Shown here: positions 14,359-59,109 of the stretch, one piece after another
Layout: every line of letters begins with the position of its first letter
Position numbering within the stretch: the stretch's first letter is position 1
From: Psammoneis japonica
Lineage: Eukaryota
Assembly (NCBI GenBank): GCA_008632985.1
Contig: QPGO01000071.1
Coordinates: 62,001-126,000, forward strand
Direction of reading: 5' to 3'
DNA: 64,000 bases
Notes under the pieces: generated by a model
What the model was told of the DNA's origin: nothing
Database searches by the model: none
Seen by the model: only the letters and a program-made list of their open reading frames with translations
Program-made: the position numbers and the translations under genes

Positions 14359-17300
14359 TCAACATTTCCGTCGCGTTCTTCGGAACTGCCGCTGACAACG
14401 TTTGAGTGAGCGAAAAGAGCGAAGAAACACCAAGCACAAAAGACCAAGCTCCTGTAGTAACAGTAGAGCTTGCCACTCATCCGCCTGGTCCATTTCCAAG
14501 GCACCATTCGAATACATCAGCTGTCGGGCAATCACCGGAGCAGGACGTTTGAGACGACCGTGCCTACCGGGTGCTATTGCGGTTGAGTAGTAGGGAAGCC
14601 ACGGTGAATCCTTTGTGAATACGGCAAAATCGTACCATAGTGCCCGTTTTGTGTCTCTCGTGTCGTTGTTTTCCTTGTAAACACCCCTACTGTACATGTG
14701 AATGCGAGGGACCATACCCGTCAATTCTCCGTAATGGCGGTTATCCTTTGTGCGAGGAGTCTCGGTTGTTATCTTGGACCACGTGATTTCTGTTGCATTG
14801 CCGTGTGGACCAACATGGATTCTTCGCATCACTCTATGGTTCTGACAATGCAAAAGAGAAGCAACGCTGACAGAAAGCGTATGTTGACTTTTATCACATG
14901 GTACGAAATCGAACTGGAGCAATCTGATATCACCCATAATTGGGAATCTCTCGACTCCAGTTACAGAGATATCACCAGGTGCGAATTCTGAAAACGGACT
15001 GCGGCCAAGAGCAATATTGAGAGCGCTGCCAAAAAGGCAGGGTCCGGTAAGATACAAATGTCCGAGGGCCAGCCCAGTCGAGGTTTGAGGATCGGGGCAA
15101 AGATTATTCATCAAATCTGGAAGGGTGTCGCGGTTCAAAACCTGGCTGACTATTCTCGACAAAGCAATTGCTATTGCTGGATGTCCGGGATAAGTTGCAA
15201 TCAAACCAGAAAGAAGACAGCTAGAGCGAATGCCTTCACGTTCAATCCTTGCACTTTGATCAACGGTTGCCAACAACCCGATCTCGTCTCGATGTAACAG
15301 TTGCTCCAACTCCAACTCCCCTTCACCAGAATAATGGACATCGTTGTCAACGTAAACCCCACCATTGATGAGAAGACATGCATATCGAAAAAGATCCGAT
15401 TTGAAGGCACCGGGTATCAACGTGTCGTAGGCTTCCAGGACAATTGATGGGAAATGCTGGGCAAGAAACGATCGAGCAGATTCGTTATCGAAGACCTTGT
15501 AGTCATAACCATCTAGGCTCTTCCACTTTTCCATCATGAGGTGAGTTTGCTGATAGGCTTTATCTGAACCATCGGGAATGGGGTCCAACGAGTACCAAAA
15601 CTGGCTTATGACTCGTGGAATCAGTTTGGAGCTACTGCCATCGCTGGTGAATGACGGGGCATTACTCACATTGACAGGAAACTCATGCCACTCCGTGGTG
15701 TCTTTCGTTGTTGTTTTGGAATCGACGTCGTCACACGTGAACAAGTGTTCACAGGAACAGGTGCAAGAAAACAGTTGGGAGCAGACACTGCAATTGCCCA
15801 TATCAATTGATCTGAGGCAAAGCTGACATTCATACTCCCAGCAAGGTACTTTTGGGAACTCATCTTTTGAGTAATGCCATTTCCCGGCTTTTCGAAAACC
15901 AGCTTGGATGTATCCAGTATGATCAGTAGGGTCATTGACTTGCATCGTTTTGTTATACAAAAGGGTAGAGCCAAAATGAGATTCCATTGGTTTCGCTTTG
16001 GGTAGGACACTTTCGGTGATTGGTGCTTCGAGGATCTCCTTGTTTGGTCTCGCATACTCTCCAACTCGGGCCCGTTGAAAGAGACGGGGGAATAGTCGCA
16101 ACGCCTCTTGTGTTCTGCTCCCAGTCGGAATCCTTGATAAAGGTTTATGCAATGATGCGTGGTCCTTCCCACAGTACCCCGTGGCCGTATAGTCAATTTG
16201 TAGAAGACCGCGCCATCCTTCTAGGTTCTTTTCAGCCCTGTGAAACACGTGCGTATCCTCAATCCATACGGTACCAGCATTTCCAAATAAAGTCTCTTGT
16301 TGCTGCGTAAAGATGTTTTGTTTTAGGTAATCCTCTGGAAGAACTTGAGATGCCATGGAGAGTGCATACTCTTCAATTAACTGTGTGTACCCTGGAACTC
16401 TCTTTCTAGTCCGACGCGATGGTCCCATGACATTTTGAGTGTAGGGAATGTAAGTGTGTGGCCCAAGTTTCGGATCGGTGGCATCCGTGAGATAGACAAA
16501 GACTTTGACAGATCGAGCTGAATTAAAGTCCTTGTGCCAAGTATCAAATGAAAACTTTGTTGTATTTCCGTCTTCGCGTGCGACGTTCATAAAGACATCT
16601 ACCGTCCGGATGACGGGCGGTGCGCCCAATAGGTCCTGCAGGACATCCAAAATAAAAGGATCATAAGCAATCTGCTGGACTTTAGCTAGTTCAAGTCCTT
16701 GGTTCAAGTCATGCAACATGAAGGTACCGTAGTATTGCTTGTCGCGTGCAACTTCTGGTGTAAGTCCCTTCAAGGTCCATCCGTGCGCCATCTCCAAAAA
16801 GTCCTTGTCCTTTAGGTCGTCGGTCAAACCATCTACCCAATCCGAACTCATGGAGCGAGGTAATACCGAAAGGCCTTTTTCTCGTAACTCCTTCAGCGTT
16901 CTGTCTTTCTCAGCCTGAACGAGTGCTGCGTTTGGAAACAATTTCGCCATTTGGTAACTCTCACCCATTGTGATATCAGAAAAGTTGTGCCTACGTAAGA
17001 GATGGCCCATTTGTTGAACTGCCTCTGTTGCTGGTTTCATACTTCCCGCTCTGGTATTCAGCAAATAGAGGAGGTTTCGGTTTTGGGCATGGTTGTTGCA
17101 AAACGGATGGTGTCCACCTAAAGCTTCCGTGACGAGTAACTGTTCTGCAAGCCAGCAAGTGTTGTTGTAATTCCAAAACTCTGAATACTTCATTTGCAAT
17201 GGTGGTGCTTCACCTGGACTGGGGTTTAGCATGTCGCGCCGGTTTAAATGGTCAAGCAATTCTCGATCGAATTCACAACGTGGCTGTTCATTGGATGCAC

Positions 17301-17385
17301 TCCCCGGCTCGACACGGAAGATTATCATGACAAAAAGCCCTATCCATACAGATTCGAGGCCGACTGTCAATGCATTGAGTTTCAT
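14359..17385 (-). CDS. Secretory membrane-anchored fusion: PhyH-like 2OG-Fe(II) dioxygenase domain + Cys linker + GT32 (OCH1-like, DxD) glycosyltransferase, copy 1
   Basis: 1008 aa; signal peptide; WHKD...GPHTYIP...GTVWIEDT..FHRA; IPRVISQFW, AFKSDLFRY, GGVYVDND, TGP.LFG; C-terminal hydrophobic segment and basic tail. Confidence 0.85.
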   Translation of the reverse strand: MKLNALTVGLESVWIGLFVMIIFRVEPGSASNEQPRCEFDRELLDHLNRRDMLNPSPGEAPPLQMKYSEFWNYNNTCWLAEQLLVTEALGGHHPFCNNHAQNRNLLYLLNTRAGSMKPATEAVQQMGHLLRRHNFSDITMGESYQMAKLFPNAALVQAEKDRTLKELREKGLSVLPRSMSSDWVDGLTDDLKDKDFLEMAHGWTLKGLTPEVARDKQYYGTFMLHDLNQGLELAKVQQIAYDPFILDVLQDLLGAPPVIRTVDVFMNVAREDGNTTKFSFDTWHKDFNSARSVKVFVYLTDATDPKLGPHTYIPYTQNVMGPSRRTRKRVPGYTQLIEEYALSMASQVLPEDYLKQNIFTQQQETLFGNAGTVWIEDTHVFHRAEKNLEGWRGLLQIDYTATGYCGKDHASLHKPLSRIPTGSRTQEALRLFPRLFQRARVGEYARPNKEILEAPITESVLPKAKPMESHFGSTLLYNKTMQVNDPTDHTGYIQAGFRKAGKWHYSKDEFPKVPCWEYECQLCLRSIDMGNCSVCSQLFSCTCSCEHLFTCDDVDSKTTTKDTTEWHEFPVNVSNAPSFTSDGSSSKLIPRVISQFWYSLDPIPDGSDKAYQQTHLMMEKWKSLDGYDYKVFDNESARSFLAQHFPSIVLEAYDTLIPGAFKSDLFRYACLLINGGVYVDNDVHYSGEGELELEQLLHRDEIGLLATVDQSARIEREGIRSSCLLSGLIATYPGHPAIAIALSRIVSQVLNRDTLPDLMNNLCPDPQTSTGLALGHLYLTGPCLFGSALNIALGRSPFSEFAPGDISVTGVERFPIMGDIRLLQFDFVPCDKSQHTLSVSVASLLHCQNHRVMRRIHVGPHGNATEITWSKITTETPRTKDNRHYGELTGMVPRIHMYSRGVYKENNDTRDTKRALWYDFAVFTKDSPWLPYYSTAIAPGRHGRLKRPAPVIARQLMYSNGALEMDQADEWQALLLLQELGLLCLVFLRSFRSLKRCQRQFRRTRRKC

Positions 17386-17799
17386 GGTTCAACAGCGTCA
17401 CTCTCTTCGAAACTATTGATCCAAACCACTAGTTCACAACACTCTCGTCTCTCGTCTCGTTTTGCCCAAGAAAAGGTGTGACGGTGTGACACAATCCTAA
17501 AAGCGAAAAGTGGCCGTCGGAAGAATGATGACGGCATGAGACTTTTCCTATTGTGGAGCTCGATATTCACCCTATTTATTTTTATTTGGCAACAAATAAA
17601 TTTCAAATGAGAGACACAAGAGCTCCAAATGGACATCATTGCGATTCCGCATAATGACAATGTCGCTGATGACTTAGGTTTTGGTTTTATCAAGGTCATT
17701 AAGGTCATTTGGACTTTTGCACGACATCGTCAAAAACCCGTTGAAAAATCGTTCGGTCTCGAAAATGAAAATGGCCGATTGCTTGGGGGACCGTTCATT

Positions 17800-20700
17800 G
17801 ACAGTTTTGCATGTGTCTGCCCGGTTGCCACAGCTGCTTCCCATGTCTCATGCATTGAAACCCTTGTGAATGTTGTGTGTTGTCAACCACACTGCTTCTT
17901 GTCTCCACCTGTGTGTGGCCTCTTTTGCTGACACAAGCAGGTGGTCTGTTTTGGGGTGTCCCATCAACAATGATTTCTCTGTTGTTGCTTTTGCTGGCTT
18001 GTTGCCTCCTCTCATTTACCCATCATGTTGTTTGACCCATGTGTGTGCCTTGCAGGAGGTTTGGGTGCACAAAAATTGTGGCTTTTGTGTCGTGGTGCAG
18101 AGAGGCCCAGCAGTTGTTGCACCCGCCCATTGTGATGATGCGCCAAGTGACTGACCTTGAGCAACTTGGAATGGAAAGCATCTCTGCAAATGGGGACATT
18201 TTGACAAATGTCAAAAAAATTTCATCTCAAACAACTGCATGCATGGGGGTGACTTTGTGAGACCAGCTCACAATGAAAAGTCTTTCAGCTCAGCCAATCT
18301 TCTTTTCAAGCCATCTTCCTCAACCTTCTTGTGTTAAAGAGCAATGGAGACATGGGTGTTCACTTGCATGTTGCAAGACATCACTCACTGGAAATTCAGA
18401 TTTGACATGTCCCATCTCTGCAATTAATCTGGAATGGGTGGTGGCAGGGTGGAAGCTCAGCTTGAAAATTTGTCGCTCCTGATGATGGCAGCATCAGCAT
18501 GAATTCGTTGTCAAAAATGCCAAAGTGCTGCTCTGCATTTTTGCTCTCCAGTCTACCAACTCTCTCCAAATTAATGACATCAAGGTAGAACCATGATTGC
18601 AGTTGCTTTGCTTGGGCATCAAAAGATTCCTTGGACCCAAGAAGCTGCTGCTCTGTGCACAGGAAAACCCAGGAACAGTGTGTGTCGTTTTCTTGAAGGC
18701 AGCTTTGAAAGCAGCCCCCCCCTGGCTGTCTCACTCTTGGTCACTTCCACACCAATTTTCTGCACTGCCACTGTCTTGCACTGCTGCAATTGGATCATTC
18801 ATTGACTTTCCCTCACTTTTCTGCGCCAGTGTGAAGTCAGAGGTGGCTGGAAATCTGGCTCTTGGTGGGTGGACACAGAATGGCACCATGTGATGTGGCA
18901 TCACAGGTGACTGAGCCAGTGCTTTCTTGCAAAACAAAAGTTCTGACACCAAACACAGCACCACAATGATCGCATCAGTGTGGCACAAGATTTGGGCTGG
19001 CTCCTGCAACAGCGCTGCAGTGGTGGCAGGTCTGTGCACTCATCCTGAGAAGCTTGCCTGCCACATCAGTTTGGAGCAAGTCCACTCTGTTAGAAGCCCT
19101 GTGCAGGCCTCTGCAAAATCCAGCACAAATTTTGACAGTGTTTGCATCATGCACATGGCAATGCACTCTCATGTTGATGTGCACACAGCATGCACTGCAC
19201 TGGTGTTGGAGCTCCCACGCACATGTTTGGTGTGTGGTTTTACTTTTTGCCAGCTCATGACCCACAAAAAACTCAATTGCTTGACTCATGTCATGCTGTG
19301 CCACACAAACATGACAAAAGAAACACAGCACTTTGTCTCTTGTCTTTGGTTTGATCCAGTGGATTGGTGGCAGCACAGGTGTGAAGAAGCACCCACCAGT
19401 GTTGACAGAGTTGACACACTGGTGCCTCATTGGGGAACAACTCTTGAGCTGCTCAGCGATGCAGTGCCTGACTGTTGGGCTGGAGCATTTGCAGCCACAG
19501 AGAGCACCATGCATGATTTGCATGAGCAAGAGTTTGTTTTCATCATGACATGGCAGTCTGATGGACATTCAAGAAAGTGGCAGAGATGCACTGCCCACTG
19601 CCACTGTTCCATGCACCTGGAGTCAGTTGCAGGTGATCTCTTTTTGAGTGCCTTCAATGCTTCACCACCTTTCACACAAGCAAGCTCAGAGATTTGCATG
19701 TCAAGCCATGCTGTGCAAATGACAACACAGCAAAGGCGCACATTGACTCAATCTTGATTGTGTGCTTTGATGGGTTCAGTGATTGGCTGAATGAAGCAGA
19801 AGGCAGGAGCAACATCACAAGTGCTTTTCTGCAAATTGCTGCCAAAAAGAATTTTTTCTTGAGAGGCAGTGGAATTGCCCCCATGTTTTGCATCCTGGAA
19901 GCAGCACAAAGGAGAGTGACAGGTCCTGCACTGACATGGGAAATCATGTGGGTGTGCTGCTGCCCTGCCAAATTGAGTTCAGTGACCCAGAGACTTGCAG
20001 CAAGAAGTCATTGCCCAGTGGGGTCTCAACCTGTGTTTTGTTGTGGTTGGGTGGAAAGATGGGAGCAACATGACAAGTGCTTTTCTGCAGAGTTGCTGCC
20101 AAAAAGATTTTTTTCTGGAGGCTGTGGAATTGTCCCCATGTTTTGCATCCTAGAAGCAGCAAAAAGGAGAATGATGGGTCTTGCAACATCAGAAATGTGG
20201 GTGTGTTGTTGCCCTGCCACATTGAGCTCAGCAACCCAGAGATTTGCAGCAAAAAGCCATTGTTGTCCAATGGAGTCAATCTGTGTTTTTTGTTGTGGTG
20301 GGGTGGAAAGACAGGAGCAACAGCACAAGTGCTTTTCTGCAGAGTTGCTGCAAAAAAATTCTTTCTGGAGGCAGTGGAATTGTCCCCATGTTTTGCATCC
20401 TGGAAGCAGCACAAAGGAGAATGATGGGTCCTGCAACATCAGAAATGTGGGTGTGTTGTTGCCCTGCCAAGAGTTGAGCTCAGCAACCCAGAGTCTTGCA
20501 GCAAGAAGCAATTGTCCAATGGGGTCAACCTGCATTTTGTTGTGGCAGGGTGGCTGTTGGTGTGTGCACTGCAGCACAGTGTGCATGTGACAGCTGTCTC
20601 GAGCTGAATGGGGTTCTCAAACATTTGGGCACTTTTCAAATTGAACCTGTTGGATTTGCTGCCCAGAACATGGCCACCACTGATGAACATCTGGCACATT

Positions 20701-21050
20701 TCAAGGGGATTGATTTAGTGCTTGAGGTTCAGAAAGCTGGGAGAGGCGGTTGAGAACAGAAGGCATGCAATGAGCAGAAGGAAGTGAGTCTTTGTGGAAT
20801 GTGCTCTCCAGCATCTGGTCACTCGCTCACTCTCCCGTTTTGTTGTTGTCAACACAGAGAAGACCTTTGGTGGCAGGGGGTCCATGAGAGGACATTTGTT
20901 ATTTTGTTCTGTTTCTGCAGACATGGCAGGTCCAGAATCATTCTCAGGGTTGCAGCCCAACATTGTGAGAGTTGATTCAGTCAATCCCATCAGCGATGAG
21001 CTTTTCCTGCAAGTCTGTTTCCTGGTGCTGCTGACAACAATGCTCGCTTG
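17800..21050. other. Hypermutated island 1 (TpA- and CpG-depleted, TpG/CpA-rich)
   Basis: Manual count gives about 11 TpA and under about 20 CpG in about 3.2 kb, while both are common in the flanking genes. Confidence 0.92.
19800..20550. repeat. Three diverged tandem copies of a ~255-bp unit inside island 1
   Basis: acaagtgcttttctgca near 19817, 20073 and 20325; each followed by ggaattg.ccccatgttttgcatcct.gaagcagca. Confidence 0.9.
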
Positions 21051-21815
21051 GAACAATTCAAGGAACTTGTAACAGTTAGAAAATTACCTCCGGCAGATGA
21101 GAGGGATCTCAACGAGCACATTCAAACCCTGGCCAATGACTGTTTGTCAAAATGGGGTAATCTACACGGAGTTGGACCGTTTCCTTCAGGAACTTCGTCA
21201 TTGGGAGCAACAAGGCGCCCTTGCAGAGTGCTTGAGTTGCTTGTCTGAGGATGCCAACGTCGACGAAGTTCAACGGTTATTAGAGGGATTTCGTGGCCAT
21301 GGTGTCATTGACTTGACACGTGCTAACGACATGGTTGATGGGGCGACAGGACTGCACGCCGTGAAATTATGAATGCCCGCAATGAAGCAGCACAGCGTGG
21401 TAACCCAGAAAGGGTGCCAGCCAGCAATTCAGGAGACTCTTCTGATAGTGAAACGGAACTGAGAAATTTGGTCTGACAATGCGAAGATAATAAATGGGCC
21501 GGAAGCTCTGCATTCTGCATTATAACTACGTAGTGAACGAACGAAAACGATTGAGTTCTTCAAGACAACTGAGTGGTACGACTACAGTTTTGTAGAGCTT
21601 TTTCCTAATGACGGTTGTATAAGGTGAAGGGGAAAGCAAAAATGCAGAGCAGGCTGTTCCCCAACCTCTACAATTTGATTATTTGCAATTGCCAATTGTC
21701 CCCACTCGGTAGATCCAAACAGGAGTCGTATTCAATACCCGTTGTGGCTCTTGGATTTATCGATGAATCTTGCTACTAAGGCGTTTCTTAATCAGCTTTT
21801 CTTGGGACAAAGTCA

Positions 21816-24800
21816 TCAACATTTCCGTCGCGTTCTCCGGAACTGCCGCTGACAACGTTTGAGTGAGCGAATATAGCGAATAAACAACAAGCACAAAAAA
21901 CCAAGCCCCTGTAGTATCAGTAGAGCTTGCCACTCATCCGCCTGGACCATTTCCAAGGCACCATTCGAATACATCGTCTCTTGGTCAATCACCGAACCAG
22001 GACGCTTGAGTCGACCGTGCCTTCCGGGCGCTATAGCGGTTGTGTAGTAGGGAAGCCACGATGAATTCTTTGTGGATACGGCAAAGTCGTACCATAGCGC
22101 CCGGTTTGTGTCTCTTGTGTCATTGTTTTCCTTGTAAATCCCGCGACTGTACATGTGGACGGGAGGGACCATACCAGTCAATTTCCCATAGTGTTGGTTC
22201 TCCTTTGTACGAGGAGTCTCTGGTGTTAACTTGGACCACGTAACTTCTGTGACGTTGCCATGTGGATCAACATGGATTCTTCGCATCACCTTTTGGCCCT
22301 TCTTACAATTGCCTCCAGAAAGAGTATGCTTGCTGTCTTGACATGGTACGAAATCGAACTGAAGCAACCTGATATCACCGATAATTGGAAATCTCTCGAC
22401 TCCAGTTACAGAGATATCTCCCGGTGTAAATTCTGAAAACGGACTACGGCCAAGAGCAATATTGACGGCGCTACCTACAAGGCAGGGTCCGGTAAGATAC
22501 AAATGTCCGAGTGTTAACACAGTCGATGTTTGAGGATCGGGGCAAAGATTGTTCATCAAATCTGGAAGGGTGTCGCGATTCAAGATCTGGCTGACTAGTC
22601 TCGACAAAGCAATTGCTAATGCTGGATGTCCGGGATAACTTGCAATCAAACCAGAAAGAAGACAGCTAGAACGGACGCCTTTACCTTCAATCCCGGCACT
22701 TTGATCAACAGATGTCAGCAACCCGATTTCGTCTTGCTGTAAAAGTCGCTCCAACTCCTCCTCTACACCAGGAAAATAGAGATCGTTGTCGACGTAAATA
22801 CCGCCATTGATGAGAAGCGACGCATATCGAAAAAGATCCGATTTAAACGCACCGGGTATCAGCGTGTCGTAGGCTTCCAGGACAACTGATGGGAAATTCT
22901 GGGCAAGAAACGATCGAGCAGTTTCGTTATCGAAGACCTTGTAATCAAAGCCATCTAGATTCTTCCATTTGTTCATCATGAGGTGCGTTTGCTGGTATGC
23001 TTTACCTGAACCATCAGGAATGGGATCCAATGAGTACCAGAACTGGATTATGACACGAGGAATCAATTTGGTGATACCGCCGTGGCGAGAGAGTGATGGC
23101 GCATTACTCACATTGACCGGAAATTCATGCCTATCCAAAGTATCTTTGGTTATTGTATTGGAATCGGTATTGTCACATGTAAACAAGTGTTCACAGGAAC
23201 AGGTGCAAGAATGTAATTGCGAGCACAACTTGCAATTGCCCAACCCCTTTGCTTTCAGGCAGCGCTGACATCCATACTCCCAACAGGGTACTTCAGGCAG
23301 CTCATCTTTTGAATAATTCCAATTTCCAGCTTTTTGAAAGCCAGCTTGGACGTAACCAGCATGATCTGTAGGGTCATTGACTTGCATCGCCTCATCGTAT
23401 AAAAGGGTACCGGCAAAATGAGACTCCAATGGTTTCGCTTTGGGTAGGACACTTTTGGCGATGGGCGATTCGAGAATCTTTTCATTTGGTTTCGCATACT
23501 CTCCAACTTGGGCTCGTTGAAAGAGTCGAGGGAACAGTCGCAACGCCTCTTGTGTTTTGTTCCCCGTCGGTATCCTTGACAGCGGTTTATGCAATGATGC
23601 GTGGTCCTTCCCGCAGTATCCCGTGGCCGTATAGTCAATTTGTAGGAGACCACGCCATCCTTCTAGATTTTTCTCGGCCTTGTGAAACACGTGCGTATCC
23701 TCAATCCATACGGTACCGGCATGTCCAAATAGGGCCTCTTGTTGCTGCGTAAAGATGTTCTGTTTTAGGTAATCCTCTGGCAGAACTTGAGATGCCATGG
23801 AGAGTGCATACTCTTCAATTAACTGTGTGTACCCTGGTACGCTCTTTTCAGTCGGATACGATGGTCCCATTACATTTTGAGTGTAAGGAATGTAAGTATG
23901 CGGTCCAAGCCTTGGATCGGTGGCATTCGTGAGGAAGACAAAGACTTTGACAGACCGAGCTGAATTAAAGTCCTTGTGCCAAGTATCAAATGAAAACTTT
24001 GTCGTATTTCCGTCTTCGCGTGCGACGTTCATAAAGACATCTACCGTCCGGATGACGGGCGGTGCGCCCAATAGGTCCTGGAGGACATCCAAAATAAAAG
24101 GATCATAAGCAATCTGCTGAACTCGAGCAATTTCAAGTCCTTGGTTCAAGTCATGCAACATGAAGGTACCGTAGTATTCCTTGTCGCTAGCCACTTGTGG
24201 TGTAAGTCCCTTCAAGGTCCATCCGTGCGCCATTTCTAAAAAGTCCTTGTCCTTTAGGTCGTTGGTCAAACCATCTAACCAATCCAAACTCATGGAACGA
24301 GGTAATACCGAAAGACCCTTTCCTCGTAACTCTTTGAGAGTCCTTTCTTTTTCAGCCTGAATGAGTTTCGTGTTTGGAAACAACGACTCCATTTGGTGAC
24401 TCTCAGCCATTGTGATTTTGGAAAAGTCGGACTTTCGCAAAAGATGTCCCATTTGTTGAACTGCCTCTGTTGCTGGCTTCATACTTCCCGCTCGGGTGGT
24501 CAGCAAATAGAGGAGGTTTCGGTTTTGGGCATGGTTGTTGCAAAACGGATGGTGTCCACCCAAAGCTTCCGTCACGAGCAACTGCTCGGCAAGCCAACAA
24601 GTATCTTTGTAACCCCAAAATTTGGTGTACCTAAATTGTAATGGTGGTGCTTTCCCTGGTGCACTCGGGTTGAGCATGCCTTTGCGATGTAAAGCGTCCA
24701 GCAAATCCGGATCGAATTCACACCGTGGTGGTTCCTTGTCGTTTCTCACTCTCGATTCGACAGAGCCAATGACAACAACAATGACAAGGACAGCTATCAT

Positions 24801-24845
24801 GTGCACAGCTTGGAGGCCGATAGACAACGTATTGAGTAGTTTCAT
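21816..24845 (-). CDS. PhyH-like dioxygenase + GT32 glycosyltransferase fusion, copy 2
   Basis: 1009 aa, collinear and highly similar to 14359-17385, including the 3' flank and upstream motifs. Confidence 0.85.
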   Translation of the reverse strand: MKLLNTLSIGLQAVHMIAVLVIVVVIGSVESRVRNDKEPPRCEFDPDLLDALHRKGMLNPSAPGKAPPLQFRYTKFWGYKDTCWLAEQLLVTEALGGHHPFCNNHAQNRNLLYLLTTRAGSMKPATEAVQQMGHLLRKSDFSKITMAESHQMESLFPNTKLIQAEKERTLKELRGKGLSVLPRSMSLDWLDGLTNDLKDKDFLEMAHGWTLKGLTPQVASDKEYYGTFMLHDLNQGLEIARVQQIAYDPFILDVLQDLLGAPPVIRTVDVFMNVAREDGNTTKFSFDTWHKDFNSARSVKVFVFLTNATDPRLGPHTYIPYTQNVMGPSYPTEKSVPGYTQLIEEYALSMASQVLPEDYLKQNIFTQQQEALFGHAGTVWIEDTHVFHKAEKNLEGWRGLLQIDYTATGYCGKDHASLHKPLSRIPTGNKTQEALRLFPRLFQRAQVGEYAKPNEKILESPIAKSVLPKAKPLESHFAGTLLYDEAMQVNDPTDHAGYVQAGFQKAGNWNYSKDELPEVPCWEYGCQRCLKAKGLGNCKLCSQLHSCTCSCEHLFTCDNTDSNTITKDTLDRHEFPVNVSNAPSLSRHGGITKLIPRVIIQFWYSLDPIPDGSGKAYQQTHLMMNKWKNLDGFDYKVFDNETARSFLAQNFPSVVLEAYDTLIPGAFKSDLFRYASLLINGGIYVDNDLYFPGVEEELERLLQQDEIGLLTSVDQSAGIEGKGVRSSCLLSGLIASYPGHPALAIALSRLVSQILNRDTLPDLMNNLCPDPQTSTVLTLGHLYLTGPCLVGSAVNIALGRSPFSEFTPGDISVTGVERFPIIGDIRLLQFDFVPCQDSKHTLSGGNCKKGQKVMRRIHVDPHGNVTEVTWSKLTPETPRTKENQHYGKLTGMVPPVHMYSRGIYKENNDTRDTNRALWYDFAVSTKNSSWLPYYTTAIAPGRHGRLKRPGSVIDQETMYSNGALEMVQADEWQALLILQGLGFLCLLFIRYIRSLKRCQRQFRRTRRKC

Positions 24846-32093: not shown

Positions 32094-32299
32094 AGCTCTA
32101 GAGAGTATCTTTCGAGTATAGATTTATGCTCACTTGTGTGTTCAACAATACTACAGTAACAACATGAACACGCCGTCGACAAACTTCCCACGCCAAGATG
32201 AATTAGACGCAATAGTCTAGTTTCGATTGCTGCGGGAAGTTTGTGGGTGGCGTGAGCTGTTTGGAGTGTGTGAATGCGGTACGATTTGGGCGTGCGCGC

Positions 32300-33400
32300 T
32301 TCTTCCAGACTTGCAAATTCAGCAGTCAGCCAGCCAGCCAGATCAGATCAGTCAGTTTTCAGCAGTTCATTAGCACTCTCCATCACGAACAATGAGTTCA
32401 ATGAAAACAACAGTTTTGGTGTGTTTCCGGCCCTCTCCAAAAGCTTTGCAGTGCCACGCCACCATGTGCAAAGCACGCTAAGGACCCGTCCCCCTGCGCT
32501 GTTTGGCGGTGCACCCCCCCAGTCACTGTGAGAATGATGGCACAACCGAAAAATGGCATCTTTCATCACAGTTTGAGAAAAATCATGTCACACACTGCAG
32601 ACTGTGTCCCAAACTTTTTTGTGGCAGTGTCGGTGCCAAGTGGAACCTTGCCGGCTCCTGGCATTGTGCAAGTTGTGGCAGAGGGTCAGGAAGAAGAGAA
32701 AGACACTGCAGCTCTGCTGCACTTGAAAAAGGCTGACGCTCACAACATGATGACCATGCATGCCTGTGGTGGACCCAAGAGACAAGATCCTGTTCAACGA
32801 CCAATGCCGTTGTGGCAGGAGCACTCTGTTGGTGCTTTCCGGGACATCGTGCATCGTGCCATCTCCCAATTGTTCATGGAAGAATGGAAAGAGATCAAAG
32901 GTAAATGTCAGATGCAAGAATTGCACAAACATTGGCAAGACTGTCAGGTGCAACAACAACAAGACTCTGCCGCTGATCTTTTGTCATTGTGGTTCGAGCC
33001 CATGCAATTTGACAGTGACCCCACCAACGCCATTCAGTTTGCTTCTGCGTGATTCAATCTGGAACCCATTCCCAAGCCTCACATGATGGCAATCCATGGC
33101 ATGCAGCATCTTTCCTTGCAAGAGTCAGTGGCCAAAGATGGAGCGTGCATCAGAGAGACTCAAGGGTTGCAGCTTGCTTTTTGACTGTCCACAAGGTTTA
33201 ACTTGTGACACATTGAGGATGGCCTGGACAAGTGGCAAACATTGCGTTTGCTTGGATTGGCTTTCCAACCAACAACAGACAGAAGGCACTCCTTCACAGT
33301 CTTTCCAATCATTTTGAAACCAAACACAATTCACCTTGGACGCCACACGTTAGTGTCGCATGTGGGAATCCCGAATGCGACTTGCATGTGCGCGGCATGG
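32300..33400. other. Hypermutated island 2
   Basis: TpA nearly absent from about 32500 to 33340; TpG/CpA excess; composition returns to normal by about 33420. Confidence 0.85.
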
Positions 33401-33525
33401 TTGATTATTTTTCTGGGAATCCGTCTCTACTTTCGAAACAACGACGCATCCAGGCCGTGTCTCTTAGGAGTACACAAGGAAAATTGGCAGATTGGAAAGA
33501 GGTGTACCGAGTAGAAGTATTGTGA
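32535..33525 (+). pseudogene. Decayed 2H-phosphoesterase (cyclic phosphodiesterase-like) gene
   Basis: LSLWFEP, an in-frame TGA, then KPHMMAIHG, which reverts to EPHVTVIYG when CG and TA are restored. Second motif PHVSVACGNPE; 3' end VSLRSTQG looks unmutated. Confidence 0.65.
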
Positions 33526-34421: not shown

Positions 34422-36469
34422 GCCATGAAATCAGAACAATGTTTGTTTTAGAATTTATTGTCAAGCATGAGACACTTTCATATTTCAATTGCGAAGCAAC
34501 CAAGGCGGCGACGCGGCGGCGAACAATGAACAATCCTGATGCATGCTTTTGACCGGATGCCGGTTGTACCGTATGTCGCCTGCTGGTTGCTGGCATGGAG
34601 TGCAGGACAGACGGTGATGGGGTGAAGAAACAAGAAACTAATTGAACTAACAGGTTCCTTTGTGGTTGAGTTTCAGGGCACATCTATCAGACAAGCTGCT
34701 CTGCTAGAGACCTGGCAATGGCACAATGGCTCACACTTTGGAGGCCCCACTGGGAGGCAGAGTGAAGAGAGAGAGTGGCACCAAAAAAGTCTCAGCGGAT
34801 GTGCCATTCCCACTTGAGATGCTGCAAGCAGCGTGTGAGCATGGTGAGACTGAACTGGACAACTGTGCATTGGATCTGGCCAAATTGTGCCAGGAAGCAT
34901 GCACCATGAAAACACAAACCAAAATCAATCATGCTGATTTGGACAACATTGCTGCCGACCGTCCCTTGTCTGCCATTTGCACAGGAACAGAGAAACACAA
35001 CTGGACACAACCAAGAAAAAGGCCGTTGCACTTGATGGCAATGCTGAAAACTCTGCAGCAGTGTCTTGGGATGACACATTCTTGCAGAATTGGACAAAAC
35101 GCCTGGCTCTGCATGCTACAGAGATTGAAGGTGGCACAAAAACATTGAAGCTGTGATGCTCCAATGTGCAAAGAATGCTGCTCACCAAGACCAACAACAC
35201 CTGGGAACTGCCACAGCATCCCAAATCAAAGTGGATTGCCCCTGCAGCCTCTGACACCATGCATGCCATCAGCAAACATGCTGGCAGTGCACACAAGAAG
35301 TTCAAGAGCCATCTTGAAGGAGGGGTCAAGTTTCACAAGGAAGACTTTGACATCATCCTTGGTGCTCATTTAGACTCCACTGAGTCATGGAAGATGTGCC
35401 ATTCCCACTTAGATGCAGGAATCTTTGTCAAAAAGCAGGTGGCGGTGCTCAGCAGAAGAAAAATGTGATTTTCTAGAAGCTGCCTCAGAGAGGAGAAATG
35501 GGCCTTGCAGAGAGAGGGGTGCTGAAGAGAGGAAATGAGCTCCAGGGTGGAGTGGCGCCAGGGGGGCAGAACTTGTTGCTCAGAGGAGAAGCGCCAGGCA
35601 ACAGTCAGCAGACAAAGCAGGAGGGGAGCCACCAAAACAGCAAGCAGCACAAAGCACCCACCTTTTGCAGCTGAGGCAGCCAGTCAGCATGGACCCACAT
35701 TCTGTCCTGTGAATGTCTTGGAGCTTTCTTGCATGGTGCACTTTGGTTGATGGGGGGTGAGTTGGTGCCAGGGGCAGGCAAGCCATGAGCCGGAGGAGTG
35801 GGGAGCTTTGGAGAGCAGCTGCATTGTCATTGGCCATTTGCACTGCTCAGGAGGAGGGTGAGGCAGTTTTTGATGTCACAGGTTCTTGGAGTTGGATGCC
35901 CACAATGTTGCCAACTTTCCAAAGTTCTGCAGGGAAAGGAAAGAAGGAAAGAAGGACATTGTGGACAGCAAGCTGATGCCTGTTGGGTTCAAGATGTTGA
36001 CAATGGTGTTCTGGGCCTGCCTCTTTGGCAGGGGTGCTGGTGTGATGCAAACACCGCAAACATTAACAGCAGCTTCTTGGCATGGTTTTCATGTGGTGTG
36101 GCAATGTCTGACAAGGGCAAAAAAGGCATTGAGGTGGTCTGCAGATGACTGGGCAGCATGGAAGGGTGGGTCAGAAGCATCAATGTCAGCCACAATCCAG
36201 AGGGCATGGTCATGCAGGGGGAAGCAAATTGGTGCAATGTGGGAGGCCATGATGGGCAGGGATGGCACCACCCACCGGGTGTCTTTGGCATGGTCAGTGA
36301 AGCTTCTTGAGGGAGGAAGGTGTGCTGGCAGAGATGGGCTTGCATCTGCAAATGGGACAGGATGAAGTGGAGACATCCATTGTCCATTGTCACAATTTGT
36401 AAAGTGTGAGATGGGATGCTTGGGCCAGTCTTGCATGTGGAAGCATGCAGGCACTGGCCCAGAAGCAGA

Positions 36470-37014
36470 AGATGTGCAGTTTCTGCTGGAAGGGAGTTTG
36501 ACTTCACACTTGCAGTGTCTTGTCTTTTGGGGGAAGTGGAACAGTGCAGAGAGACAGGATTTGTTTTGACATTTTTGTGTCAGTCCACGTTGCCACATTT
36601 TTCACTCCTGCAGCAGGAAAAGCCAGAGCTGACCTTTTTTTTAATGGCAGAGAATGGTTGGATGTTTCAATGAAATCCCAGTCTGCTGTTTTGTCGCCCA
36701 CTTCTTTGTCTTTGCTGCAATTGGAACCAAGATGTTCTTCTTTGGGCAGATGCAGTTTTCTCAAGATAAAGCAATCCTCCTTCATCAACAATGTTGAGCT
36801 GCTCTAGGCACTTGATGCAGTGCTGTTCATGAGTGGGGACATCCGCCACCTTGGCAAGCATGGTTTTCTCAACAAAAACTTCAGACAATTGATCCGGAGA
36901 CAACTCACATTCAACGGCTCATTCCTCAATGCATTCATCACCAATGGCTCCCAAGTGCATGGTGATTTGTCTGCCAACAGCCAAGCAGGTTGCAGGAAGG
37001 TGAAAGAGAAAGAT
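36470..37014 (-). pseudogene. Hypermutated 3' fragment and 3' flank of the 43-46 kb membrane-protein gene family
   Basis: SPDQLSEVFVEKTMLAKVADVPTHEQHCIKCLEQLNIVDEGG aligns with SPDQLSEILVEKTMLAKAADIPIHEQYRIKYQEQLDIIDEGG; DNA aligns with about 44630-45143. Confidence 0.95.
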
Positions 37015-40000
37015 GGGCTTCCTGTGGGCCTCTGCCAAGGTGAAGCTGCACCCTGTCAACAAAAAAAGCAGCACCCTCACTTGGATTGGACAGCTCAGGT
37101 GACAATGCAGAGCACTCTTCATTGGATCCCAATGCATGAGATTTGTCAGCACCTGGAAGCATTTTGTGCACAGAGACATCTTTGTCTTTTTCTTTGGACA
37201 GAGATCTGTCTTGGTCACAGTCATTGTCATCTGATCCATGAGATGCATTGTCCTGCAAATCCATGTCAGGAAAATCACATGAGCCTCATGCCGCATTGCT
37301 GGGAGATTCAACCAAGATGACAGCAAGGGTGCACATGGGGGAGCCAGTGCCAGCAATGATGACAGGAGTGTCGCGGGAGGTGCCAACACCTGCGGTGTGC
37401 ACCTCACAGGATGATGATGACCAGTTCTCATGCTCCCTTTGGTGACTGAGAAGCGACACTGAGGCTTGGGACAGTTTGCCCAAATCAGACAAAGATGCAT
37501 CCACACAACCAATGGTGTTGGACCTGTGGCAACAATGGTGATGACAAATCTCATGTGTTGAGATCCAAATGGGGGGGNNNNNNNNNNNNNNNNNNNNNNN
37601 NNNNNNNNNNNNNNNNNNNNNNNNNNNNNNNNNNNNGTTGAGGGCAACTGTGCTGATTCATTTGAAATTGGTTTGCCGAGTGAGCATGGGTCGTGACTTT
37701 AAAAAATGTGGTTCACCATGGGACAAGCAGACAGAGCAAAGGCAACATCATGGTTGTTTGTCACCCCTGAAATGCACACATTCAGTGATGCACAAATGCA
37801 CTGCATTTGAAACTTGGGCGAGGTTGTTCGAATGGAACATGTTTCAAAATCAGAGGATGAAGAATGCAGACAAATCTTTTTTTTTTGCATTGGCTGGAAG
37901 AAGAAAAGGAAATAAAAGGCAACCTGATTTGTGATGGTCAACCTGGCAACACCACACACACAACCATCAGCAGAGCTTTGCAAAAGCATGCTGCACAACA
38001 AACAACAAAGAAAGCATGACAACTGTGGTGCAGAGGCAAATCAACACAGCTGAGAGAATGGCTGATGATGACAAGGTGGGTGGCAACATCATCAAGGTGA
38101 GAGACCATGTCAAAGAAAAGGTGTTTCTCAGCATCACATGTGTGTTTCATGCAAGGCAGCCAGAGGAAACAGGCATGTTGTGTGCAAAGACTTTGCCCAG
38201 AACTGTGAGCCAATGCTGGTGGATGGCACGCTTTTAGAGCTTCCAGAGGTGCAACAAATTTCATGCCTGCATTTCCTGTGGATGAAGATGAGACAAGCCA
38301 GGTTGCATCAGCCAGGAGCAGCTGGCAATGAAGTGATCAAATGCTCATCAGGCTCAGCAGGACAGGTTCTTTCATGGCAAGTGTGTCTGGTCAATGTTGA
38401 CAAATGAGGAGAAACACCTTGTTGTCATGTCATCCCCAGCTGTGCAGCACTTTGTGCTTGCTGCAAGAAGAACAGCTGCACATCTTGCTGTCACCAAAAC
38501 AATTCCAGGGTCATTTGTCATGCCCAACATTGCATGTGGTGCTCTGTGGCTGCCCTGTTGCAACCTGTTGCAAGACAAAATTGTTTGAAGAAGAGCCTCT
38601 CTGATGACATGAGGATGTGCACGTCATGTGCCAAAGCATTTGCACACATGCTTCTCAAGAACAACTTTGATGTGTGGTGTGCAGAGCACAAGAGCAACAA
38701 CACACCAGACAGCACTTTGAGGTCAGACTGTGACATGGAGGTCAAGAACAAAGGAAACCCAACTGGAAGGGCGGACTTGTGTGAAAGCATCCCACCATGA
38801 CCAGCCATTGCAGAGGAGCACAAGAGGATGCAAACAACAAATTGAGCATGTTCACCTTGTTGAAGAGAGACCCAGAAGAGCAGATGGAACAAGGAATGGT
38901 GCAGGAGCCAGTGGACTAGCTCAAGAGTGATGGGTGAAGAGGATGATGCTGCAATCTTGGGAGGGAAAGTCTGGCACTGAGCAAGAAGCTCCACACAGGT
39001 GTTGTTGGATGGTTTCCGTCAATTTGATGCAGACAAATCTGGCAGCTTGACCAAGAGGGAGTTTCTGAAACTGGTTTCTGGAATTGATTAAAAACTTCAA
39101 CAGTCACACCAACCAACCCCCTGGCTCCCACCTCATTGGACAGTGCTCAAGCGCAGCATTTGGTGCAGTGGATGGACACCCTCTAGAACCCAAAGTGGGT
39201 GCCAGCATGCATCGCCATGCCAGAAAAGATTTGTCCTCTGCTGCTGTGAAAGGAAACTGGTGGCAGCGCGCTTGCATTTGGCGTGCAGTGCACCCTCCAA
39301 TGTGCACCTGTGAATGCATGCAGGTGTTGTCATGGGTGAGAAAAAAGCATCTGAATTAATGCCTTCAGTGAAAAGAACATTGTGCTGCTCACCGAATTGT
39401 TCGGAAAAGACAAGTTCATTGCATCGTGACGTGACAAAGAGGAAAACACATGGACCAGCCATTGTGCAAGGAGTGCCACTGCTGCAATGCTTGTCATGAT
39501 CCTCTCCACTTGCCACAAACAGAAAAAGATGCGCAACACGATTGCGCACTGCCTTGCTGCAAACAACGAACAAGTGCTGTGGCAGGATGGAGGCTGCGAA
39601 CGCTGTGAGACTGACGATCCCCGTCAAGCGCAAGCCCTCGGCACTTTCATGAGTGTCTCTCTGATGATCCATGACTTTTTTGGATGAAACATTTGCCATG
39701 GGATCATTGCTTTGTCCTTTTCGTAATCTGCAAGCCTCCATTTCCGCTTCCTTGAAGTTGATGTCATCACTGTTGAGAGAATTGCACTTTTGCTTCAACA
39801 CAAAGTCAGTGTGCTCTCCTTGATGAGTGCAAAACAGGCATTTTGTGCACAAAGCATTGTTCCATTGCACTTGCAGCATTCAAAACCTGGCATTTCCGTT
39901 GCCGCAGGCTCATCATGTCGAGGATGCTGGACATCAGACGACCAACGCAATGATCTCAAAGAGTGACTTTTTTTTCCTTCCACGGCCAATCATTTCAAAC

Positions 40001-40377
40001 CAACGAGATTTGAATGAACACTTTGTAGAGTGTTAGACAAGACTGCCAAGTGTGAAGCTTCAGATCATTGCAGTCACAGAGTGGCAGGCCTCCAAGTTTG
40101 ATGCGCCATTGCGGACAGCCGACAGGCAGCGTGTTTTTGTTTTTTGTGTGTTTTGGCAGGTTTTTGGAATTTTTTTGAAGATTGACAAATCACCGGACGA
40201 CGGCCAGCACATGGTGGCGAATTTCAGACCGTCAGCGTTCCCGCAGTTCACAGATTCACTGAGCGATTGCAGATGAATGAACAGCTCGACCTTGGAAGCT
40301 GTGAAGCTGCGTTGTCATCCCAACCGCTTTGACAGCTCACCCCGACCTTGTGCCACAACAAGCTCTGTTTCTTTACA

Positions 40378-40704
40378 ATGAACGACGATGCGAACGATCG
40401 CTTTCGGTTCGGCTCTCGCGAAGGACTCGATCGGCCTGACCTTCGAAACAAGATCAACGACATCCTTTTGCATGACTGGGATCCCATCGGCGCAATGGGC
40501 TTTTTCGATGACGTTGACTGTGGTGCCGTTCGAGATGAGCACCGGGATCATGTCCCCGACGTCTTGCGCTTGTTGCAAAGCAGAGGGAACGAGCAGCAGA
40601 TGTGTGAGCTGCTGCACCAAATTGGAAAGGACTGGTGGAGAGAGGATGCACAACCGGAAGACCACACGGTGGTGGCACAAAAGCTTGTTGCATTGATGGA
40701 GTGA
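40378..40704 (+). pseudogene. Small WDPIG...DEY-type protein gene with Tyr codons apparently converted to His/Cys
   Basis: ILLHDWDPIG...RDEHRDHVPDVLRLL resembles a WDPIGV...DEYDxY motif I recall from small bacterial-type hypothetical proteins; no Tyr and no TpA in the ORF. Confidence 0.55.
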
Positions 40705-43013
40705 GGTCAAGAACGTCATGTCCCGGAGAAGTGCGCCAGCAAAAACATGGGTTTGTCACACAGTGGCATGGTGTTTCGGCACGAGCATGTGATTTCTTTT
40801 CGCACACTTTGTTTTCGTTGCTTTGGTTGCACACAGCGATTCGTGAAACAAAGTCGTAAACCATGCCGTTCCGTGCAGCTTTGTCTCAGTGGTTTTTCTT
40901 GTGTTGGATTACAGTCACAGCAGCATGCCCGAAACAACCCGGCAATGTGTGCTTGACAACTCCAAAAATGCCCTTGCTGGAACAAACCACCACGACGCTG
41001 CAAAAACCTCGTCCTTCGCAGCACCAGCAGCGTCTGTTTCGTCGATTGTTGCCTCGATGGGGTTTGGTGGCAACCAGCAGTCGTGCAAAGACACAATTGC
41101 ATGTGTCGTGAAAAATGCAATGTCCCGCATCATGCTGCGTTTGCTTTTCTCCTCTCCATTTTCTGGGAACACCACAGCAACATTCGCAAGGGACTGGAAG
41201 CCAAGAGAAAAAGTGCAATCATGGCCACCAATGGCAGCCACAATGGCCATCCTATCCAGAGAACTGGAAAAACTGGAAGCCTCAGCAAAGCAAGCAGCAA
41301 CAATCATTGCTCAGAGGGCAAGCATGAGCCAGTCACCCTGAAAACTCGTTGACATGTCGTGCACAGTTTCTCAAGAACTGGGCACCGCATTCATGGATGA
41401 TGGTGCTGCTGTGAAATGTCTGGGGCTGGCTTCCACTGTTTCCAACAAGGCCTTGACTTTGGGCTTCAAATTCTGACAGAAAATTGAAAAACAGATGAAG
41501 CCAGCTGCCAGCACATGTGCACTGGCCAGGTTCATCAGATTGCCCTGACATTGTGGGCAACCTGTGGCCGCTCCAGACTGCCAAGGCAAATGTGCGAGCG
41601 TTGCAGCAAGAGACCTTGCAAGATTTCCTTTTGGTGATGTTGAATTGCCCGCTTGACAGTTGTTGGCAACAGGGGCACAGTTGAAAGTGGATCACCAGTC
41701 TTTTCCTTTTTCTTTGTCAAACTTTTGGCTGGCACCTTGGCAAGCAGTGAAAAAGTGAAGGCAGCTTGTCAAGCCCCTGGGTTGTCACAGATGTTGCTTT
41801 CACTGTCATGATGGACAAACACAGAAACAAGGTTTTGGTGCTTTGCAGTGGTGTTGGCTTGCCAGATGATCTGTGGAGTGACGTTGAGGTTGTCATGATG
41901 TGGCGAAAATTGATCTTGTCCATCCTTGGTTGCCAGATGTTCCACTGCTGGCCATGATGAACAAAGCCAGAAACAATGATTTCATTCCTTGCAGCAGTGC
42001 TGAGCTTGCCATGTTTCTACAGAGGGTGGCTCAATTTGTCATGATGATGACAGCTCTTGTTGATCTGTGCACATGTTTGCTTTGTTGTGAGCGCAGCAAT
42101 GAAGATTCCATGTGGCTCTTTTTGAAAGAGCCATGCCATGGAGGAGAAGCAAACAATCTGAGCAAGCCTGGTGCCTGTCTCTGCATCATCTGTCTGATGC
42201 ATTGTGTGTGCACAGGTGCACATTGTTGGATGTGTGAGGTTGCCACAGAGGGGCCTCGCTGTCTGCCAAAGAGCACAGCATCACTGGCTCTGGTGTTGGC
42301 ACCTCCTTTAGATCTTCTCACAACTTTGTTTCATGCAAGCTCTTGAGGGCAGCAGCATGAGTGTGTTGAAGGCAGGAGGGAAACTGCAATGAGGATGGCA
42401 ACCATGGCACAGCAATTTTAAAAGTGGCAGCCAGCCAGAGTTGAGGGACCCCAAGGTGTCACAGTGGTGGACCCAGGGTGTGGGAGAGGTCAGGGCAGCA
42501 GCACCAGCAATGAAGGATCCACATCACATGCTGGCCACAAAGCCATGGTCATCAGCCATGGTTGTCATGAGGGTTTGAATGGGGAGGCACAATGAAAGAT
42601 CAAACATCTTGAGAACATCCAATGAATGAACCAGCTGTGCGCCCCTGATGCCCAGAACAAAGGACAGTCCGACCCAAATCTGGCTGGACAAGAGAGGCTT
42701 AGATCAGTCACTTTGAGCATTCCATGACTGACTCCTTCTGTTGTCACACTTGTTGGACGTGCAGCTCTGCCTCTGCCACAACAATCAAATCGAGTCTGCA
42801 ATGCAAAGAAGAAATCTTTCTTCGCAACAGATCTTGAGGAACTGCAGTTTCTACTGCAAGAAAGTTGCACTGCGCGCTCACGGTTTTTTTTGGGGGGGGG
42901 GGGGGGGGGAGGCCCAGTAGCAGCTCTACTCTGGAAGAGCAGTCCACGTCGCTGCTTACAGGAAAAAGTGCAACTCGATAAGTCTGCATTGATAGACATT
43001 TCTAGAAAATCCT

Positions 43014-58898: not shown

Positions 58899-59105
58899 TG
58901 GGGGAAGACTCCAGCCAGCTGCTGGCTGAAAAAAGTCTGCTCGTCAGTGCGTTTGGGGGTTTTGCCAGTACAATTTTTATGTACGCAAAAGATGTCGAGT
59001 CTGTCCAGCGCTCGCCAAACCCCCTAACGCACAGATTGACAGACTTTATCAGTACAATTTCTACACAAGATTCTTCAGCCAGCAGCTGGCTGGAGACTTC
59101 CCCCA
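58899..59105. mobile_element. 207-bp MITE-like element with 32-bp TIRs and 4-bp TSD (GACT)
   Basis: TGGGGGAAGACTCCAGCCAGCTGCTGGCTGAA (58899-58930) matches the reverse complement of 59074-59105 with one mismatch; GACT at 58895-58898 and 59106-59109. Confidence 0.85.
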
Positions 59106-59109
59106 GACT

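Follow-up and report, generated by a model that had tools for sequence, protein, structure and literature searches.

A 64,000-nucleotide stretch of contig QPGO01000071.1 from the diatom Psammoneis japonica (positions 62,001 to 126,000; hereafter the window) contains six islands from which the dinucleotide TpA has been almost entirely erased. The TpA sites that survive in these islands are biased in their flanking bases, and at the scale of the window this bias is confirmed to lie far beyond chance. The evidence indicates that a process of transitions acting in place erased TpA from the islands, with the base 3' of each adenine setting the rate at which that adenine was hit, and we consider it probable that the agent was an enzyme aimed at silent chromatin. 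The rule that emerges has three parts: adenines in 5'-TAY are lost much faster than those in TAR, with TTAA resisting longest; a hit on one strand is independent of hits on the other; and the changes are transitions only (Y, pyrimidine; R, purine).

The islands were called by two-state segmentation on TpA alone, and all counts given below are from within the window. Their combined length is 17,007 bp, in which 54 TpA and 270 CpG remain, compared with 1,889 TpA and 2,553 CpG in the remaining 46,947 bp. In 500-bp intervals between 18001 and 21000, which lie in island 1, the ratio of observed to expected TA is 0.00-0.09 and that of CG is 0.00-0.17, while CA/TG reaches 1.8-2.1; outside the islands, the corresponding values are ~0.4-0.8, 0.7-1.3 and 1.0-1.4. 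Island 1 as a whole carries 11 TpA against ~135 expected at background density, and 27 CpG against ~183 expected.

Flanking bases of the surviving TpA sites

The 11 TpA sites that survive in island 1 (17800-21050) comprise three TTAA, two TTAG, two TTAC and one each of CTAG, CTAC, TTAT and GTAG, corresponding to six YTAR, four YTAY, one RTAR and no RTAY. This recount agrees exactly with the tally of the original prediction, which had listed 11 TpA as six YTAR, five YTAY or RTAR and no RTAY. Its description of the survivors in island 3 as mostly TTAA, TTAG or CTAG is likewise borne out: with 34713-42845 taken as the island it referred to, TTAA (6), TTAG (6) and CTAG (4) make up 16 of 27 survivors, or 59%. 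When the discovery island is set aside, islands 2-6 retain 24 YTAR, 18 mixed (YTAY or RTAR) and one RTAY site (n=43; p between 6e-4 and 6e-14 across the priors), which is an independent replication within the window.

Pooled over all six islands, the 54 survivors divide into 30 YTAR, 23 mixed and 1 RTAY, and each of five priors is rejected, with p from 8e-5 to 3e-17. The use of several priors answers to a largely coding background that is poor in YTAR, which brings stop codons on both strands. Expected counts of YTAR/mixed/RTAY are 8.1/28.6/17.4 for all background (p 3e-17), 11.3/29.2/13.5 for background outside long open reading frames (ORFs; p 3e-10), 17.0/26.6/10.4 for a first-order Markov prior built from island composition (p 8e-5) and 13.5/27/13.5 for a uniform prior (p 1e-7). 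The fifth prior takes the flank classes of CpA and TpG in the islands and represents the null in which the survivors are later, new TpA sites; it predicts 11.5/28.9/13.5 (p 6e-10).

Resolved into tetranucleotides, relative survival drops from TTAA (13 in the islands, 64 in the background) through TTAG/CTAA (12 and 132), CTAG (5 and 86), TTAC/GTAA (9 and 257), CTAC/GTAG (8 and 264), TTAT/ATAA (4 and 279), CTAT/ATAG (2 and 200) and GTAC (1 and 160) to ATAC/GTAT (0 and 332) together with ATAT (0 and 115). A weak effect is also seen one base further out, where A occupies the +2 position in 48% of survivor half-sites over all islands compared with 27% in the background. This enrichment persists inside the +1 classes with odds ratios of 1.8-3.0 (p 0.003-0.2) and is suggestive only.

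An additive model of the 3' neighbor

To describe these counts, we used a model in which the A on each strand is hit independently with a hazard k set by its 3' base, such that the log-survival of xTAy equals -(k[y] + k[complement of x]). With four parameters for ten tetranucleotide classes, the model leaves a deviance of 3.5-4.9 on 6 degrees of freedom under four priors. A context-free model leaves 34-78 on 9 degrees of freedom, and the likelihood-ratio test against it gives p 2.5e-6 to 5e-16. Under the all-background prior, the integrated hazards (T 3.0, C 1.9, G 0.9, A 0.3) make a 3' pyrimidine much faster than G, and G faster than A, and no prior alters this order. In bootstrap resampling, T and C each exceed G and A with P=0.89-1.00. 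Among the pyrimidines, the survivors put TAT below TAC, meaning that TAT-bearing sites were lost first. The rule does not tell A from T as the attacked base, because 'A of TAY' is 'T of 5'-RTA' read on the other strand.

Mutated copies and their unmutated relatives

Two paralog pairs provide a view of island DNA before and after mutation. In the first (alignment A2), a mutated gene fragment in island 3 is compared with two mutually agreeing unmutated paralogs at 44573-45190 and 42960-43390; identity is 91-94% when bases are coded as purine or pyrimidine and 78-79% in four letters. The second (A3) sets a mutated copy in island 4 against its unmutated neighbor (coordinates of both island copies in Table 1) and was found by purine/pyrimidine-coded BLAST. 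A four-letter BLAST of the islands against the window returned only the A2 pair (~36.5 kb) and internal repeats. The purine/pyrimidine-coded search of the islands against the window recovered these matches as well; it revealed no hidden partner for island 1, and its hundreds of matches at 75-80% are two-letter noise.

Each of the 15 ancestral TpA sites that fall within the well-aligned block of A2 has changed, 14 by one transition and one by a transversion, and none to CpG. Counted per base, A:T>G:C changes affect 14 of 30 positions in TpA, 3 of 49 in ApA, 1 of 28 in CpA and 1 of 53 in GpA, while C:G>T:A changes affect 20 of 43 positions at CpG and 4 of 108 elsewhere. The additive model predicts that YTAY becomes YTGY and RTAR becomes RCAR. 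Of the asymmetric sites, A2 has four with the predicted product and two with the opposite one, and A3 has six and one; pooled, 10 of 13 follow the prediction (one-sided p=0.046). Together with the fit of a model based on the 3' base alone and the rejection of the context-free null, this sustains the proposal in the original prediction that the process acts preferentially on the A of 5'-TAY. The accompanying statement that RTAR sites mostly became RCAR is thinner, since in A2 this product is found at 3/5 sites and RTGR at the other 2/5.

Across the islands, YTGY+RCAR and YCAY+RTGR occur 1195:839, compared with 2059:1722 outside (Fisher p=0.0017), and the ratio exceeds that of the background in 6/6 islands. 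Splitting the tetranucleotide gains of the islands into TpA-derived and CpG-derived parts was also considered as proof and was dropped, as the flanking bases in the islands are not composed as in the model.

Changes from AA to AG and from TT to CT, reported earlier as extras, are indeed present, affecting 3/49 ApA positions and accounting for 5/7 of the non-TpA A:T>G:C changes in the whole of A2. They do not amount to an excess, however: compared with 2/81 for CpA and GpA combined, the ApA count gives Fisher p=0.36, and the weaker activity at AA that had been read from them is not upheld. Relative to model expectation, the islands contain AA/TT at 0.90, AG/CT at 1.10, AAC at 0.82, AGC at 1.35, CAA at 0.84 and CAG at 1.22. 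Although these residuals lie in the predicted direction, they are not proof, because ancestral composition explains them equally well. There may be low-level activity outside TpA.

Nature and targeting of the process

The mass balance of the islands indicates that the changes are nearly all transitions, because the loss of ~628 TpA and ~655 CpG (~1283 together) is matched by a gain of ~1300 CpA/TpG. TG makes up a share of 0.48-0.54 of the products per island, and runs tests give z from -1.7 to +1.5, so that TG and CA products are interleaved without strand runs. Because the two products are equally frequent and do not form runs, there is no sign of a processive single-strand scanner or of an asymmetry due to transcription or replication.

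Several close relatives of island or island-flanking sequence are unmutated, including the paralogs at 43.0 and 44.8 kb, the neighboring copy at 50.4 kb and, on either side of island 1, the two genes that share 88-91% identity. Since expressed paralogs and a neighboring duplicate were spared, targeting is by region rather than by repetition or homology. The decay of TpA and that of CpG are separable, because a sub-island within island 3 (39500-41000) lost its TpA and kept 77 CpG. The same sub-island indicates that TpA loss is probably faster than CpG decay, and this CpG-keeping stretch may be a younger insertion. Its 248-amino-acid (aa) frame (39136-39879, minus strand) found 0 relatives among 1.84 billion representatives in an exhaustive HMMER search.

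CpG decay is itself dependent on flanking bases. In the islands minus 39400-41100, GCGC stands at 0.92 of its background density, compared with 0.11-0.36 for the other nine tetranucleotides, and CGC/GCG is present at 2.07x model expectation. The retention of GCGC may reflect either protection of the methylated C by a flanking G or C, or the creation of new CpG through CAC>CGC changes.

The contigs of one sequencing run differ from the window at 211 positions. Among the 40 differences listed, 12 fall in island 1, of which three have TpA on one side and three have CpG. Where the window has the surviving TTAA at 18335-18336, the contig has TG, and positions 17987 and 19739 are TpA in the contig and TG or CA in the window; the differences at 18336, 17987 and 19739 may be alleles. 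These comparisons say nothing on ongoing activity, because polarity is lacking and only contigs were compared.

Probable origin of the islands and candidate agents

The islands represent the end state of a transition process that acted in place, turning TpA into TpG or CpA, with CpG decay proceeding alongside and giving the same two products. Each TpA offers two targets, the A on either strand, at rates set by the 3' base; neither strand is favored, and which one is hit at a given site does not depend on other sites. Because the rate follows the 3' base, RTAY is erased first, YTAY and RTAR turn mainly into YTGY and RCAR, and YTAR, above all TTAA, goes last. A site once hit is no longer TpA and hence is immune. 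The agent would be an enzyme directed to silent chromatin.

Several points weigh against this account. Island 1 alone is weak evidence, as the probability of no RTAY among 11 survivors is 0.014-0.042 and that of at least six YTAR is 0.003-0.034, depending on the prior. The counts are small, with 54 survivors in all, and each prior is a stand-in for the TpA contexts that the islands originally had. YTAR sites are slower rather than immune: four CTAG and one TTAG were mutated in the pairs, as was one more site at which the two unmutated copies read TTAG and ATAG. The ranking of T over C meets opposing signals, in that 4/4 hits at unambiguous ATAC/GTAT pair sites are on the TAC side and ATGC has gained +111 in the islands compared with +56 for ACAC. 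The island-wide direction test rests heavily on CTGC/GCAG. Moreover, the islands have a G+C content of 49.1%, compared with 46.7% in the model simulated on background sequence, so part of the island-wide direction signal may be ancestral composition. As for the targets, transposon or viral domains were found in 0/83 island frames (stop-to-stop, at least 90 aa, at least 70% in islands; no Pfam match at E<=0.01). Defense against mobile DNA is therefore not supported in the window, and a fragment from a host gene family makes up one segment of the islands. Finally, the sequence reveals neither the attacked base, nor the enzyme, nor any modification.

As the agent we favor, tentatively and with less than even confidence, an adenine deaminase that acts on DNA and whose substrate pocket takes Y-A-Y, as the pockets of TadA-type enzymes do. 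Such an enzyme would turn A into hypoxanthine, which is read as G; no deaminase is present among the window ORFs scanned. The early TadA-derived editor ABE3.1 prefers YAC (PMC7056309), and ABE8e-YA, obtained from TadA-8e by the single change A48E, acts at YA with YAY>YAR (PMC12528748). Both preferences match the hazards found here, and the parallel to TadA drawn in the original prediction is supported in the sense of 'works like'. As with the TadA editors, the change here is A>G, a pyrimidine 5' of the A is needed and a pyrimidine 3' is favored, a likeness in behavior only. The editors are engineered bacterial tRNA enzymes that act on Cas9-opened single-stranded DNA and accept C or T on the 5' side, whereas here the 5' base is strictly T and CpA is a stable product rather than a target.

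Among the agents considered, a Y-A-Y adenine deaminase ranks first and a modification of thymine second, while polymerases resembling DNA polymerase eta (Pol eta) and enzymes resembling ADAR are unlikely. In the second case, which the original prediction also named and which we judge unlikely as well though less so, a TET/JBP-type dioxygenase would mark the T of 5'-RTA in silent DNA as 5-hydroxymethyluracil (5hmU), perhaps as 5-formyluracil (5fU), and mispairing with G would lead to T>C, the flank rule then being the preference of the dioxygenase for a purine before T. The rule is symmetric, and 'T of RTA' fits survivors and model equally well; TpA loss also coincides with CpG decay of the 5-methylcytosine (5mC) type in the same blocks. 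5hmU pairs normally with A, and 5fU also yields transversions, whereas the changes here are almost purely transitions. Dinoflagellates possess a TET/JBP homolog that makes 5hmU on repeats and transposons, where the mark overlaps 5mC and aids silencing, TA and TC having earlier been found to be preferred (PMC11572971). Their 5hmU is an epigenetic mark without a reported mutational trace in that source, and its TpA preference and overlap with 5mC parallel the joint loss of TpA and CpG in the islands. Unlike the dinoflagellate preference for TA and TC, TpC is not markedly lost here (GA/TC at 0.96 of model expectation), and no report of 5hmU in diatoms was found in the literature surveyed. A very unlikely third mechanism, error-prone gap filling by a Pol eta-like Y-family polymerase during repeated repair of methylated silent DNA, would put G opposite T at WA (W, A or T), with CpG deamination in the same islands as a possible supply of the repair-triggering mismatches. 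Somatic hypermutation includes a large share of transversions at A:T, and here transversions are nearly absent, both by mass balance and by direct count (1/15 TpA). The Pol eta hotspot is WA (template TW), and somatic hypermutation shows a twofold A-over-T strand bias (PMC6423074), compared with no strand bias or patchiness in the islands. W includes A, yet AA/TT stands at 0.96 of background and changes at ApA number 3/49 against 14/30 at TpA. Nor are CpG lesions needed, because the sub-island lost TpA with its CpG kept. The Pol eta parallel of the original prediction is thus contradicted by the sparing of ApA, by the loss of 14/15 TpA through a single transition and by the equal hitting of strands without runs; of its interpretation, the TAY target and the TadA-like behavior stand, and the activity at AA and the Pol eta parallel do not.

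Two further explanations would do without a DNA-directed mutator. The bias could have been inherited, if mobile or foreign island DNA had carried TpA only in TTAA, TTAG and CTAG, or if selection keeps the survivors as motifs. Ancestral sequences are lacking for island 1 and for most islands, and the islands are G+C-richer than the background-built model, both of which leave some room for this possibility. It is nonetheless very improbable, as the same bias appears in six islands without detectable mutual similarity, all five priors are rejected, and the two host-derived pairs show every TpA class present and then lost; moreover, the survivors obey a two-term additive law that is not expected from motif selection. 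The least credible of all is ADAR-like A-to-I hyperediting of double-stranded transcripts, fixed by reverse transcription. ADARs prefer a 5' U, with the wild-type ADAR2 hot spot at 5'-UAG and 5'-GAC disfavored (PMC10661471). In a duplex, editing can reach either strand. The 3' preference of ADAR is opposite to that found here, where only one context is spared more than TAG (k_G 0.9 compared with 1.9-3.0 for the pyrimidines). Against such an origin also stand the position of the blocks, which lie in place with sharp edges beside unmutated genes, the local duplicate and the gene fragment, which are not retro-copies, and the interleaving of TG and CA on one DNA strand, which is impossible from a single edited RNA strand.

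Comparison with known hypermutation systems

The closest published system is that of Bigelowiella natans, in which integrated DNA of nucleocytoplasmic large DNA viruses and of virophages undergoes A>G/T>C hypermutation at TpA only, at a rate raised ~1000-fold in some lines, and for which the authors favor an adenine deaminase (Mettrop et al., bioRxiv 10.64898/2026.01.13.699255). Its long-term trace is a depletion of TpA and an enrichment of CpA/TpG in clusters of 1-kb windows. The main text of the preprint does not contain the words 'context', 'trinucleotide' or 'tetranucleotide', and a flank rule is not stated there. As in B. natans, the changes described here are almost only A>G/T>C, at TpA alone, to TpG/CpA and confined to regions. 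B. natans is a chlorarachniophyte (Rhizaria) in which live rates were obtained from mutation-accumulation lines, with 231 de novo TpA mutations, whereas the present case is a diatom in which the end state alone is seen, with near-complete erasure and accompanying CpG decay. The B. natans system targets viral DNA, and the islands here carry no recognizable viral or transposon domain in the frames scanned.

Repeat-induced point mutation (RIP) of ascomycetes turns CpA into TpA and mutates both copies of a duplicate (RIPCAL, PMC2621366). The islands resemble its products in their dinucleotide-specific transitions in silent or repeated DNA, visible as a dinucleotide skew, with genes untouched. Unlike in RIP, the direction is reversed, as TpA in two unmutated paralogs corresponds to TpG or CpA in the island copy, and duplicate copies are spared.

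A broader and, in our judgment, doubtful proposal is that a chromatin-guided T-A-Y DNA adenine deaminase, derived from tRNA wobble-adenosine deaminases, could be a genome-defense mutator common to distant algae of the stramenopile-alveolate-Rhizaria (SAR) group, namely diatoms and chlorarachniophytes. To our knowledge, tRNA wobble deaminases always meet U33 ahead of A34, and position 34 is where a review places their action. TpA erasure would then act as a 'reverse RIP', removing Tyr, Ile, Leu and stop codons as well as TATA-like signals from silent DNA, and a weak side activity at VAC (V, A, C or G) could create new CpG in the CGC context, which would account for the apparent exemption of GCGC.

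Flank rules are the type of fingerprint that identified the APOBEC and AID signatures. The rule described here narrows the search for an enzyme, in that it speaks against spectra of the ADAR or Pol eta kind and agrees with the geometry of the pocket in TadA-type deaminases. It also predicts which codons and signals are first destroyed in silenced DNA, and it lets hypermutated DNA be recognized and dated in other genomes. TpA hypermutation as such was known already from one 2026 preprint, without an enzyme; a diatom, near-complete erasure and a quantified flank rule are added here. No paper on both diatoms and TpA was among the literature matches listed.

Islands, genes and other features of the window

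The islands and the features associated with them are listed in Table 1. Island 1 contains no Pfam domain in 19/19 stop-to-stop frames of at least 90 aa, and the genes that flank it are 88-91% identical in DNA over the blocks found. Island 3 is interrupted by an assembly gap, a run of 59 N at 37578-37636.

Table 1. Coordinates of the TpA-poor islands and associated features, as positions in the window
Feature	Coordinates	Strand	Description
Gene flanking island 1	14359..17385	-	1008 aa; glycosyltransferase DXD region; unmutated; start ~320 bp from the edge of island 1
Island 1	17706..21068		3363 bp; TA- and CG-erased; between two tandem paralogous genes
Threefold tandem repeat in island 1	19790..20560	+	~250 bp per copy; mean column identity 87%
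Tandem paralog of the 14359..17385 gene	21816..24845	-	1009 aa; unmutated
Island 2	32224..33402		6 TpA survivors: 4 YTAR, 1 mixed, 1 RTAY
Island 3	34713..42845		8133 bp, largest; 27 survivors: 16 YTAR, 11 mixed, 0 RTAY
Mutated gene fragment in island 3	36440..37060	+	'After' copy of alignment A2
Sub-island within island 3	39500..41000		6 TpA left; 77 CpG kept (CpG observed/expected 0.65-1.02)
Island 4	50688..51715		3 survivors; holds mutated copy 50930-51310 of unmutated neighbor 50380-50760 (A3)
Island 5	59064..61000		4 survivors: 1 YTAR, 3 mixed
Island 6	62631..63997		Extends to the last part of the window; 3 TpA survivors, of which 2 YTAR and 1 mixed

The window is compact and almost intron-free. 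Among its encoded proteins are a kinase-PP2C fusion, an RCC1-repeat protein, a MOT1 transporter and a D-2-hydroxyacid dehydrogenase, whose named best relatives are all from diatoms at 63-71% identity (Seminavis, Fistulifera, Nitzschia, Amphora, Cylindrotheca, Ditylum and Mayamaea). Rfam and tRNA scans of the window gave no match. Two tandem gene copies without a Pfam family lie ~1.8 kb apart at 43014-44018 and 44811-45587 (minus strand), and the hypermutated fragment at 36483-37014 in island 3 belongs to the same gene family. A 561-aa ORF at 48293-49978 (minus strand) consists of degenerate 24-39-nucleotide repeats without a Pfam match and has strong GC and AT skew. It is the sole part of the window in which TpA is over-represented, with an observed/expected ratio of 1.2-1.7.

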